A stretch of 56,923 nt of DNA. It comes from Girardia tigrina. Taxonomy: Eukaryota. Numbering within the stretch: position 1 is the first letter of the stretch; each line of letters begins with the position of its first letter. The notes beneath the pieces were generated by a model, which saw only the letters and a program-made list of their open reading frames with translations, ran no database searches and was not told where the DNA came from. Made by a program: the position numbers and the translations under genes. Where the stretch lies: NCBI GenBank assembly GCA_001938485.1, contig MQRK01254986.1, positions 1-56,923 of the forward strand, in the 5' to 3' direction. Shown piece by piece: positions 16,787-52,790 of this stretch.

Positions 16787-18623
16787 TTATGGTGAACCAC
16801 AAGTCATTTCGTATTTTCTACGTCTTTTTGTTCAATTGTTTCTTATTACCAAATCAAGATATTTTATATAGATGTCTTATATGTTTTAAAAACTCTTGAA
16901 CTGCTCTATTACAATATATATATTAAAACTTTTAATTAGTCGTTAATATAATTTTTATGGTCTTTTAGAAAAATCATGGAAAACTTTGAAATTCGTGTTC
17001 TTTAACGCCATTACTGGAAACAGGGCTTAAACGCAACTGCAGCAACAAAGAAGATATGCGAAGTTGAAGGCGATAATGTGGTCTCAAATCGTACTGCACA
17101 AAATTGGTTCAAAAGGTTCAACGAAGACGACATTGACATCGGAGACAATGTATGTTCAGGCCGACCTATCACCGTAGATTCCGGAGCAATTCGTGAAGCC
17201 GTCGAGACAAATCCGTCAATAAGTATTTGCAGATTGTCGGCAAAACTCGATATTCCTCAAATATCTATTGTACGACACCTTCACGCTCTTGGCAAGATCA
17301 ATAGACGATGTCAAGAAGTGCCTCATGAATTGACACAAATTCACATACAGCACAAATATTTACTAAATGTATAAAAACATTTCAAATACATTCCAGAATT
17401 GTGCATATTGAATTGACACAAATTCAAGCCGAAAAGCGTTTCGAAACGTTTTAAAATTGCTTTAAAATCCGCACGATGACCGTTTCATCCATCGAATTGT
17501 AACTTACGATGAAAAGTGGGTTTACTTCAGTAATCCAGACCAACAAGATCAATGGTTGAACCCCGGACAAATGGCGAAACCGATAGCGAAACGAGATCGT
17601 TTCTTAAGGAAGGCACTTTTGTGTGTTTGGTGAAATTTCGAAGGCCTGATTCACTTCGAGCTGGTTCCAAATGGTCGTACCATCGACGCTGACCTTTACT
17701 GCGCCCAACTTGATCGAATGTATGCGACACTTGGCGAGAAATACCCCGCTTTGATCAATCGAAAGCGAGTTCTTCTACAACAGGACAATGCAAAACCGCA
17801 CACCGCCAAACAAACAAAGGAAAAATCAAAAATCTCGACGCCTTTGAACTTCTTCCACACCCAGCGTATAGTCCGGATCTTGCGCTGTGATGAATATTTT
17901 AATTTGTTTGAATGTGTAAATGTATGGATGTGGTATGTTGATTTAAGTATGTTGAATTTAGAATGGTGATTCTCCCACCCAGATGGAAATTGGTATTTTT
18001 TATTTAAATTTAAAGTGATTGACTATTCGAACACAATTAAAATTAAGTTTAATATTTTTTTAGTAAAATTTAAATTAAATGCATTTTTAATAATTTGATG
18101 ACATTTTTATTATTTTAAGATTTATTGAAAAATGAAAAAAATATTATTTTTTAATTAATATTTTTAGAGGCTAAATATTTTAAAAAATAATTTAGAAAAA
18201 TTATTCGAATAATCATGATTAAAAAGAGTAATAAAAAAACCAATTAGAAGGATGACAAACGATGAAAGACTTTCTGAGAGTCATAATGACTCTAAATGTG
18301 ATTGTAATAAATGTTCAAACGAGGCTTGTTTAAATGTTCTTAATATGCGCCATCCGACTATCACCTTTTCCGCTCTATGGCACACTTTCTTCATAGTCGC
18401 AGCATCAATAATCTGGCCGAGGTCGAAAACGGGTGTCACCAGTTCTTCGCTTCTAAGAACAAGGATTGGTACCGCAGCGGGATCAAACAACTTGCCCATA
18501 GATGGGTTCAAGCTATACATTCAAATGGCCTTTACATTGAAACTTAAATGTTTTTTTATTTGTTGCAAAATTATGTTTAAATTTTTAATAAAAAATACGA
18601 AAAGACTTTTGTATTCACCCTAA
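16787..18623 (+). mobile_element. full-length degenerate mariner (DD34D) carrying two nested inserts
   Basis: TIRs TTATGGTGAA... and ...TTCACCCTAA with TA flanks. Motifs IVTYDEKW, QQDNAKPH and YSPDLA/PSDYHLF. Confidence 0.9.
17886..18345 (+). mobile_element. solo-LTR-like family copy B (460 bp)
   Basis: TGTGATG...GTTCTTAATA with perfect TSD TGCGC (17881-17885 and 18346-18350). Removing it restores mariner YSPDLAPSDYHLF. Confidence 0.9.
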
Positions 18624-18625
18624 TA

Positions 18626-49481: not shown

Positions 49482-49890
49482 TATTTTGATTTGATTGCAA
49501 TTTTAAATAAATGACAAATTATTTGAAGATAGAGGTCGGTGGATTTATCAAAAATTTTGAAAATAGTTGGAAGTTTTGTTTGAAAATTGTTTATAATAAA
49601 TGTATAAATTGAGTAAAAAATGATTTCTGAAATTGATGTTGCAAACACTTCTGACATTGGTTATAAAGTTTTTTAAAATACAATTTGGAACATCCTTCGA
49701 ACAATCTATTGTAGAGCTTTCATTCATAAACATCGCTTTAGAATGAAATTGAAAAAAGTTTTCAAATTCTTTTTATTTGATCAAATATGAACGATATTTT
49801 TTAATTTTAATTTCATAATAAATTTCATATAAAACCCTACCTTTTGGTTTTTTTCCACAAGGTAGGTAAAAAAATCACCAGGTTTTTTAT

Positions 49891-52790
49891 TGTTGTAACC
49901 AAGATAATATTGTTTGTTATGGTCCTTTTTGATAATAATTGGTCGTAAAACCCGCTGTTTCCGCTGTCTAATTCAATCATTGCTGTACCATAAGCCGTTG
50001 ATAGTAAAAACACGTCTCCTTTGTCTCTCCACCTTAGTTAGCTATTTTAAAATTTTTATTTCAAATTTTCGATTTCGAATTCAATGCAAAAACCAAAACT
50101 CAATTCACCTTTTAAAAATTTTTTTATTATTTCAATTACAAATTATTACAATTGATGCAGTAAAACAATACTGCAAGTTTTTTCAATATATATATATATA
50201 TATATATATATATATTAGAGAAAAATTTAGACTTTATTCAATAATAAGTTTAATTTTTTATGATTCATCAAATTTCAAAATAAAATGTCAGATAATCATA
50301 AAAACTGAAATGTTTATAATTAATTGATTCATTAATTTGAATCTTCCATTTCTCCCCCGTTTGAAGCAATTAATTATCATAATTGTCATGACTCTGTTGA
50401 CCTTCTAATCTGGAAATCTCTTCATCGCGTTCGTTAAAATTTTTTTCAGGAACATTGTCGTTCTGATGATCAATTTTACATATTTGCTCGTCTTTTCAGT
50501 ATCCCATCAATTTCAATATCTACCACTTTACATCTGTTATCAGGTCCCAGAATCAACTTCTTTACTACTCCAACAATCTTGGCCATCTTTTATTATTATC
50601 ACCCGATTCTAAAAACCATACCAAATCTTCCTTTTTCAGATCTCGGTTTTCTTTTAACAATTTACTTCTGTTCCTCCATTCGATAATTAATTCCCTTTTC
50701 CATCTGTTCCAAAATTGAATAGATTCTGTTCTAAAATTGTTAGATTCTGCACGTGCTTCCATCTGGAGTTTATATTTCCTTTTTCTGATCCTGACATCAT
50801 AGAATTACATTCTTCTTGATAACCAGCAATGATAAAATGATTTGGCATAAGTATCGGATTGTCTCTAAGATCTTCCATGGATCTCGTCAACGGTCTAGAA
50901 TTAACGATCCCCTCTATTTCTATTAAGATTGTTTCCAATTCCTCATGAGTAACTTCAACCGTACCGAGTATGGTGTATAGCGCGTTTTTGATTGTTTTCA
51001 CCATAGACTCAAAAATTCCTCCGAAATGAGGCGCCCTTGGAGGATTAAAGATCCATATAATTTCTCCATCATTTTATACCTTTAAGGCCTTGTAAGTATC
51101 TTGTTTATTTTCTACAATTTCGCCATTTATCCCTCGGAAGTTTCCTCAGTTATCCGAAATTGTCATCGATGGTCTTCCTCTTTTGGCAATAAATCTTATA
51201 AGATCATCATTTTCCAGCTTTATTGTTATCTCCAAATGTACCGTTCTACATTGAAGGCAAATAATTAAACAAATATATCTCTTCTCCTTCGCTTTTCTCT
51301 GTCCTTGTTTCGTAAGGATCGGACCAGCGAAATCAATTCCGATCTTATCGAACGCTTTTAACGGTTCTCGAAGACGAAACTCTGGAATTTCTTCCATTTG
51401 TTGGCAAATTCCTTTCGCATTTCTTCTTGAACAAACTTTACAATTTCTTTGGTAAGTTTTTTATAATTTTTCGCATTTTTGGGAACCAAAATCTTTCGGA
51501 AAATTTACAATACTGTTTATTAACAACATCACAATTTGAATGCAAACATTTATTTACAACACAAACAGATTCTTCACAACAATTTTCAGTGGTCATCTTT
51601 CTTTGATTAATATAGTTTTTGATTAAATATTTAAATNNNNNNNNNNNNNNNNNNNNGGGAAATATTAATATTACATTTTAATTTCTCATAATTTTTATTG
51701 GATAAAAATACATTATGTAATTTTTAAAATAAACATTAATTTTTAAAAATATTAAATTTAACAAGTTAAAATCGTTTACTGAAAATATTATTAAAATTCA
51801 TAATTATCAAACTTTAATTAATGAGTACTTTAATTTAATATCATTAAATTAATATCATTAGATTCAAATAATCAATAAAATAACATATCAATCCCATCTG
51901 AGTAGGAGAGTCACAAATCTAAACAGCATAAAAACAACAAACTTACAACATTCACAATTATCCCTCACACTGTTGATTAACGCCAGCACAGTGAAGATAC
52001 TCTTGATGAACATGTTCCACTATCAATTTTGTTATTGGACTTTTATTAGACAGCATTATCGGATATCATAAATTCCAAAGAAGGTACTCAGATTTTACCT
52101 TCTTTGGAATTTAAAAAAGATAGGATTTGCTTTTAATATTGAATCCTTTGCTTTAAGTGTTTTTCCTGTATTAATTAATTGTATTTGCTATTTACACCTT
52201 TCCTATTGATCTTCCTTTATTATTTCTTTTTCTGCTAATTAAAACTCACTTTCTTTATCATCATTTTCAGCTTCCTCAACTCTATCTATCATATGTGTCT
52301 CGGATATTCTTTTCAAGACCAATTTTCTCCATTTCGAATGATGATTATTAGCCACGGAATTCTCGGAATCATTTTTCTCACCAATATGCACTGTGTTCAA
52401 GACAACACCTTTTTTCTCTAACCACACTTCCGTTTTTAACTCTTTTGGTCTTTCTGGTCAATTTTCTTCCAGAAGTTGAAGGAATTTCGGGTCATTCCAC
52501 TATTTGTGTATTTCTGAAATTTGTGTCACTGAGCACCCTCTAAAAAGAATATCAGCCGGATTTTCCATTGATGGCACGTATCTCCATTGATTTCCTCTTG
52601 TAAATTCCTGAATATAACCAATTCGATTAGCAATAAATGTACTAAACTTTTTCTCGTATCTTGTCACCCAATACATAAATCCATGATGTCAGTCCAAAAA
52701 AGGATTTCATCCATGGTTATACCCAAGGCGCTGACTAATTTTATCGCCAACTTATTTCTTATAAAAATTGGAAAACATGAACTTTTATTA
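49891..52790 (-). mobile_element. BEL/Pao element 3' part (RNase H end, integrase, PPT, probable 3' LTR about 49891-50348)
   Basis: FWTD, WRYVPSMENPAD, IGIDFAGPI, ISDN, WIFNPPRAPHFGGIFE, NSRPL. Polypurine tract GGGGGAGAAA followed by TG near 50348. Confidence 0.88.
51518..51969 (-). mobile_element. solo-LTR-like family copy F (about 450 bp, small N gap), nested in the BEL integrase
   Basis: Minus strand TGTGAGGG...GTTGTTAATA with perfect TSD CTGTT (51513-51517 and 51970-51974). Confidence 0.9.

Follow-up and report, generated by a model that had tools for sequence, protein, structure and literature searches.

The Gag start codon of the yeast retrotransposon Ty1 lies in its 5' long terminal repeat (LTR). 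In the same element the primer-binding site (PBS) is located inside the GAG open reading frame (ORF), and the PBS segments of Ty3 are found at the untranslated ends, according to the accessible part of PMC4974528. Here, we analysed a stretch of 56,923 nucleotides (nt) from Girardia tigrina (GenBank assembly GCA_001938485.1, contig MQRK01254986.1, positions 1 to 56,923 of the forward strand), hereafter the window. It contains five copies of a repeat, named B to F, and a related fragment, named A. An earlier note, made from the letters of this DNA, had proposed that these copies derive from an LTR retrotransposon whose first ORF starts in the LTR. We describe the parent element, a Ty3/gypsy retrotransposon in which the gag frame opens inside the 5' LTR and Gag is probably translated from there.

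Other described elements can be compared with this group. The Saci2-like/lennie elements of parasitic flatworms are of Ty3/gypsy type, start with TGT, end with ACA, are flanked by 4-bp target-site duplications (TSDs) and encode a single Gag-Pol ORF (PMC12471100, accessible part). Compared by description only, they have the TGT start in common with the group studied here, whereas the latter has TSDs of 5 bp and encodes gag and pol in two distinct frames. In microsporidia (Anncaliia and others), the Ty3/gypsy elements are also compact, but they carry one polyprotein; the accessible part of the source (PMC4202319) reports no link between LTR elements and planarians and does not mention the PBS. 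More than 90% of planarian LTR elements are Gypsy (bioRxiv 10.64898/2025.12.11.693146; PMC11410931), and a gag layout starting in the LTR is not described in the accessible parts of these two sources. More generally, no description of a gypsy gag starting in the LTR was found in the literature searched, which left aside supplements and most subscription papers. Repeat libraries in supplements or in subscription databases may already list this element family.

Like Ty3 and typical Metaviridae, the elements studied here encode a Gag with a capsid-like fold and CCHC motifs, followed by a protease, reverse transcriptase, RNase H and integrase (PR-RT-RH-IN) pol in an overlapping frame, and they possess a PBS, a polypurine tract (PPT), 5-bp TSDs and solo LTRs. 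Unlike Ty3, they have no untranslated leader between the LTR and gag and no 3' untranslated region before the 3' LTR. Moreover, unlike typical Ty3/gypsy elements, most of their families end with TA and not with CA. Ty1 belongs to Ty1/copia, whereas the present group belongs to Ty3/gypsy by its pol order, but both have the PBS inside the gag ORF (for Ty1: PMC4974528, accessible part). Unlike in Ty1, the PBS directly follows the LTR and supplies the end of a second ATG, an AATAAA is present inside the leader, and the copies with an extended PBS point to a primer other than the initiator tRNA. At the level of sequence, this is a Ty1-like layout (an open in-LTR ATG continuous with gag, and a coding PBS) in a Ty3/gypsy lineage.

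The parent element is a compact Ty3/gypsy retrotransposon

We searched the 1.43-Gb genome with copy D and scored 40 of the 3,406 candidates. From 19 distinct D-like copies, 10 present an exact TSD, 6 a TSD with one mismatch and 3 more mismatches (16/19 with 0-1 mismatch). In one of these last three copies, a purine tract precedes the LTR, and the PPT+LTR pattern was derived there. We then counted 1,725 exact PPT+LTR-start junctions and 2,892 exact LTR-end+PBS junctions (LTR end, then TGGCGAC), with 0 for the reversed-pattern controls; as the LTR/PBS junction was chosen by the search pattern, its frequency is not an independent count. Paired LTRs were identified in 8 out of 20 fetched loci. They are 94-98.5% identical and the second LTR ends at the same base, which fixes the LTR boundary at the A of the junction ATG described below. 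The PPT was located in five of these two-LTR elements; two of the five show an exact TSD, two a TSD with one mismatch, and in one no TSD was seen.

The frames of one locus (L093) display the pol order PR-RT-RH-IN with Pfam, and Gag carries two zinc knuckles (zf-CCHC). The predicted model of Gag (mean predicted local distance difference test (pLDDT) 59, 8 sequences) gives weak but consistent fold matches with the capsids of dArc1/dArc2, copia and Ty3, the best with E 3.1e-3 and none at <=1e-3, and its neighbours in the protein atlas are Retrotrans_gag/Ty3_capsid. We conclude that the window copies are solo LTRs of a high-copy, compact Ty3/gypsy (Metaviridae) group. No named reference was found among the close reverse transcriptase matches, the nearest named one being about 43% identical or less.

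The gag and pol frames both cross an LTR junction

We examined 89 distinct LTR/PBS junctions from 90 loci. In the copies with an intact frame, the in-LTR ATG reads without a stop through the integrase attachment (att) end and the PBS into the CCHC Gag; at locus L083, the open ORF from the in-LTR ATG reaches 339 amino acids. A stop right after the LTR, which the earlier note had named as contrary to its proposal, is present in none of these intact-frame copies. With the paired LTRs, the PBS and the PPT, this bears out its view of an LTR retrotransposon whose first ORF opens in the LTR. The junction reads AAT A/TG GCG AC (the slash marks the LTR end), so that the last A of the LTR and the TG of the PBS form a second in-frame ATG, which the note did not foresee. 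Depending on the family, the LTR ends with AATA or AACA, and both translate as an Asn codon plus A; the att end is thus coding sequence, as had been proposed. Eleven subfamilies, with leaders (from the in-LTR ATG to the LTR end) of 22-32 codons, share the Gag phase.

At the other end, pol terminates with LKPFK(S/E)RG-M-stop. The stop is found at nt 3-5 of the 3' LTR in all five two-LTR elements with a located PPT (of 8; L194, L203, L206, L207 and L209), and four of these elements use TGA, whereas one family uses TAA. The PPT/3' LTR junction also reads A/TG, followed by TGA or, in one family, TAA, and pol runs through the PPT. With a pol stop in the 3' LTR and a gag frame coming from the 5' LTR, both LTR junctions are therefore coding.

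The layout extends to distant relatives in the same genome: families with about 36-47% Gag identity to the P0007/P0008-type queries show it, and their leaders span 25-26 codons. In each of seven public proteins (35-90% identical), an extension precedes N-M-A-T, the starts of these proteins being gene-caller choices. One of the queries, P0008, is about 41% identical to its best match in the genome and shares the N-M-A-T pattern at the protein level only. DNA around relatives in other species was not found in viral or metagenome contigs, and the layout is known from one genome. In addition, two subfamilies (L095 and L196) display a further in-frame ATG, at 97 and 121 nt from the LTR end. A stop 2-3 codons before the main ATG separates it from the leader, and this arrangement may record a shift of the start site.

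The leader is kept open and in phase

We assigned 119 copies to 7 subfamilies. Ninety-nine of them aligned without gaps to their exemplar, and 20 were left out, 11 of which come from one subfamily. Among the 99 gap-free copies, the ATG is present in 85 and the frame is open in 83. Over these copies (7 subfamilies, 202 codons), no column-majority stop occurs in the Gag frame, while the two other sense frames contain 9 and 46 of them. We also looked for the 5'-most ATG within the last 130 nt of the LTR in 10 family exemplars, which were picked with an ATG in place, and it is in Gag phase in all 10. The spacing between ATG and AATAAA takes the values 30, 36, 39, 42, 48, 54 and 60 nt, and that between AATAAA and the LTR end 22, 31, 34 and 37 nt; all of them keep the phase. 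Moreover, 17 indel events were counted in 8,878 nt of leader vs. 129 in 10,300 nt just upstream, and this depletion begins at the ATG.

Genome-wide, the ATG of the 22-codon subfamily is kept in 94 of the first 100 copies listed (of 1,827), and for another subfamily (32 codons), 91 of the first 100 copies listed (of 3,273) have an in-phase spacing. Two apparent exceptions were discarded. In the 22-codon subfamily, 8 copies out of a sample of 20 had lost the upstream ATG, but this proved to be sampling noise, with only 6 such cases in the first 100 listed genome-wide. A putative frameshifted sub-lineage in one 32-codon subfamily (9/100 off phase) was read as decay, the off-phase copies having different backgrounds.

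A purine is present at -3 in 80 out of 84 in-LTR ATGs. In most copies, a YCA motif is located 4-13 nt upstream of this ATG, and we take it to resemble an initiator. The main text of PMC11410931, in its accessible part, makes no mention of a planarian initiator motif. Finally, a rare derivative (L217-L221; 5 exact matches) has no leader frame and no AATAAA at the usual place, while its junction ATG is kept. Gag deletions are common to 4 of its 5 copies and it is probably non-autonomous. This gag-deleted derivative thus constitutes a small natural control in favour of frame selection.

The leader peptide probably reflects mainly nucleic acid signals

The earlier note had seen in the leader a conserved Cys/Asn-rich protein motif, and this part of its proposal did not hold. 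We estimated the ratio of nonsynonymous to synonymous changes (dN/dS) between subfamilies from 22 open-frame copies (15 pairs), single pairs ranging widely on 12-32 codons. The pooled value is 0.83 for the leader and 0.73 without the ATG, the AATAAA and the last four codons, vs. 0.15 for Gag codons 4-60; decay after insertion pushes these values towards 1. The proportion of synonymous differences (pS) is also lower in the leader than in Gag (0.41 vs. 0.70), as a constraint at the RNA level predicts. Within subfamilies, variants found in at least 3 copies comprise 9 synonymous and 35 nonsynonymous changes and 0 stops (36, 162 and 12, respectively, for singletons), and no synonymous excess among these shared variants was significant. 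The note had also named a dN/dS near 1 and random indel phases as signs against a coding leader: the first was nearly reached (0.73-0.83), and the second was not observed.

Most of the motif can be matched to other signals. Among 94 LTR ends, 56 have an AATAAA at 31 nt from the end, 15 have it at 34 nt and 7 off phase at 29-33 nt, and it is absent in 16. The 'NK' of the reported CxxN(K/T)C motif is an in-frame AATAAA in 6 out of 6 subfamilies checked (22-37 nt from the end), and its terminal 'VxN' coincides with the last 11 nt of the LTR. A Cys three codons before N-K is found in eight close subfamilies, but not in the distant families P0007, L188 and L212, and the P0008 extension has no Cys. 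The leader has no Pfam match and its region in the predicted model (residues 1-39) has a pLDDT <50. The Cys/Asn peptide is therefore mostly a likely poly(A) signal and an integration end read as codons, and not a new domain.

Proposed translation from the in-LTR ATG and alternative explanations

The gag frame opens inside the 5' LTR, at an ATG located 22-32 codons before the LTR end. We propose, with a probability of about 0.62, that Gag would be translated from this in-LTR ATG with a short, sequence-tolerant N-terminal extension, whose frame and phase, and not its residues, would be selected. A promoter in U3 would start the RNA a few bases upstream of this ATG, so that the leader would lie in R/U5, and the AATAAA would be used as poly(A) signal in the 3' LTR. 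From there, ribosomes would cross the poly(A) signal, the att end and the PBS before they reach the capsid domain. As they have to pass through the leader, selection would maintain its open frame and its phase, whereas its residues would mostly be imposed by the att end, the poly(A) signal and the TG-rich sequence. A shorter Gag would result from leaky scanning to the junction ATG, and both ATGs may be used. Solo copies would inherit the ATG and the AATAAA passively.

Several observations weigh against this proposal. The dN/dS of the leader is high (0.73-0.83) and the depletion of stops among shared variants is not significant (0/44 vs. 12/210 singletons; p=0.23). The family exemplars were picked with the ATG in place, 11 out of 18 copies of one subfamily are off register or unusable, and 13 out of 55 alternative frames are also open in at least one copy. 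As the subfamilies share ancestry, the 11 open frames perhaps represent 4 independent cases. The upstream sequence that served as indel control is more AT- and homopolymer-rich than the leader, and 13 out of 17 leader indels are not multiples of three, 12 out of 17 coming from one subfamily; such non-triplet indels are expected of decay after insertion. In addition, the junction ATG has a stronger context (A at -3, G at +4) than the in-LTR ATG. Finally, in three 'RNA?' contig runs (of 17 listed, all contigs), the LTR depth is 10-50 times the gag depth and the flanks at the LTR end are diverse. These runs look like DNA and provide no start site or poly(A) site.

Part of this evidence would fit a Gag starting only or mainly at the junction ATG, the upstream ATG and its open frame being kept since an out-of-phase upstream ORF would hinder this start and since the length of R/U5 would be constrained in the RNA. 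Protein conservation begins sharply at N-M-A-T, the junction ATG is in an optimal context, residues 1-39 are poorly modelled (pLDDT <50), and the leader is near neutral at the amino-acid level with a synonymous divergence below that of Gag (pS 0.41 vs. 0.70). However, dropping the upstream ATG would be simpler, yet it is kept with a purine at -3 in all subfamilies. In two subfamilies, a more upstream in-frame ATG is even isolated by a stop, and a further in-frame ATG is present after this stop; moreover, seven different ATG-to-AATAAA spacings are all in phase. We consider a junction start, the main alternative, to be rather unlikely. It is also conceivable that phase and openness result from chance and shared ancestry, with no role in translation. 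The open alternative frames, the relatedness of the subfamilies and the non-significant stop depletion go in this direction, but the phase is kept across families with unalignable leaders and about 36% identical Gag, and the indel depletion starts at the ATG; chance is therefore extremely improbable.

Selection could instead act on the residues, the Cys/Asn-rich leader being a functional motif for, e.g., metal binding, lipid modification or membrane targeting of Gag. The Cys conserved three codons before N-K in eight close subfamilies, a dN/dS slightly <1 and a synonymous TGT-to-TGC change common to one sub-lineage are in line with it. Such a motif is nevertheless very unlikely, given the families without this Cys (P0007, L188, L212), the P0008 extension without any Cys, the lack of a Pfam match, the low-confidence, unstructured model and the 9 synonymous to 35 nonsynonymous shared variants. 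Translation from the in-LTR ATG, with the frame selected and the residues tolerated, therefore remains our preferred explanation.

Other features of the elements

The gag and pol frames overlap, pol being in the -1 frame (L093, about 1100-1150; L154, L174 and L187). In most of 18 copies, GGGAAAC or GGAAAAC is located 6 nt before a predicted hairpin at the gag end, which suggests -1 frameshifting. The start of pol is rich in Cys and Asp. At locus L041, a PPT-LTR-PBS unit forms one LTR common to two tandem elements.

The short PBS is replaced by a tRNA-like complement of about 40 nt in L089 (1045-1085), and it is also extended in L084, L063 and L192. This extended complement is probably a read-through of the primer. 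In L089, it is followed by DNA similar to large-subunit rRNA. We presume the primer tRNA to be Arg-type; no source tRNA gene matching the extended complement was found in our search.

LTR copies and neighbouring sequences in the window

The window copies and their leaders are as follows.

17886..18345, + strand: solo LTR B (31-codon subfamily); TSD TGCGC/TGCGC; inside a mariner-type transposase remnant (Transposase_1, left flank)
18252..18345, + strand: in-LTR leader of B; ATG to LTR end 94 nt = 31 codons + A; AATAAA at 18306-18311
23370..23757, - strand: solo LTR C; TSD GTGAG/GTGAT; leader ATG at 23465, 96 nt; AATAAA at 23400-23405
37357..37798, + strand: solo LTR D (27-codon subfamily); TSD ATAAC/GTAAC; leader ATG at 37717, 82 nt; stop at codon 21
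44915..45324, + strand: solo LTR E; TSD CTAAT/CTAAT; leader ATG at 45228, 97 nt = 32 codons + A; AATAAA at 45288-45293
51518..51969, - strand: solo LTR F (26-codon subfamily); TSD AACAG/AACAG; leader ATG at 51596, 79 nt; AATAAA at 51549-51554
9450..9670, + strand: copy A, a 5' piece of this LTR family that lacks the leader; right end approximate

Copies B to F are solo LTRs of 388-460 nt, which start with TGTGA, end with TAATA and are flanked by 5-bp target duplications. All five consist of a single LTR between 5-bp flanks, with no PBS or PPT. B, E and F have exact TSDs, whereas those of C and D contain one mismatch. Their translations, ATG positions and ATG-to-end distances (94, 97, 79, 82 and 96 nt for B, E, F, D and C, respectively) are exactly those previously noted. 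In C, 30 nt instead of 31 separate AATAAA from the end, i.e. one base is missing. The AATAAA of D is decayed, and the 'T' of its CxxN(K/T)C motif corresponds to this decayed signal. Beyond the LTR end, the frame of B stays open over 92 codons of flanking sequence, as far as 18623, and differs from the frame of the mariner remnant. The frame of F continues for 26 codons, and that of E meets a stop after 4 codons.

Exon-like frames of a TRPC/TRP-gamma-like channel gene are located at 16176-16568, 23891-24217 and 45537-46130 (+), the first of which was tested: flatworm proteins make up most of the best full-length matches of this exon (65-68% over 99%). Introns of this TRPC-like gene contain B and, probably, C and D. 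The window also carries a GIY-YIG frame of a Penelope-like remnant (9819-10352, -), an RT/RNase H remnant of another Ty3/gypsy element (40033-40848, -) and a GC-rich tandem array with a 21-nt period (9-236), similar to a sequence found after the truncated gag of locus L071. On the strand opposite to the GIY-YIG frame, we take 10745-11053 (+) to be an RT-thumb-like Penelope-like remnant, and the DNA around copy F, which has no Pfam hit, presumably belongs to a BEL/Pao-type integrase remnant. As copy A adjoins the GIY-YIG remnant, a Penelope-like pLTR was considered for the repeat, and it was ruled out by the TSDs, PBS, PPT and integrase.

Possible consequences for solo copies and for the host genome

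We followed the frame of 31 LTRs, either solo or 3', into the flanking DNA, where it stays open for a median of 13 codons (range 1-109). The earlier note had suggested that each solo copy would be a promoter-plus-ATG cassette; such a cassette would add only this median number of codons from the flank. The AATAAA in the leader could end solo-LTR transcripts at once, or it could be skipped, as must happen in the 5' LTR. One metatranscriptome contig spans the junction, with 33 letters on the LTR side, which is not proof of transcription. The two in-frame starts (one in R, the other at the att end + PBS) might give long and short Gag with different roles, in a lineage that would be coding from LTR to LTR. 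The many thousands of solo LTRs, each with its own start site, ATG and poly(A) signal, would then produce micro-transcripts, both capped and polyadenylated, that encode a Cys-rich micropeptide or chimeric N-termini. We regard this scenario as quite unlikely.

In these elements, about 100 bases would be in triple use: the PBS, the integrase att end and what is probably the poly(A) signal would all double as Gag codons, and the end of pol in the 3' LTR forms the mirror arrangement. The frame, and not the identity of the residues, can thus be the conserved property. Caution is needed with similar cases, as what looks like a Cys/Asn-rich 'motif' can in reality consist of AATAAA and TG-rich RNA signals. 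In the host genome, thousands of solo LTRs carry an AATAAA and an ATG in a favourable context. Within introns, e.g. those of the TRPC-like gene, they might give rise to new 5' ends or to early polyadenylation.

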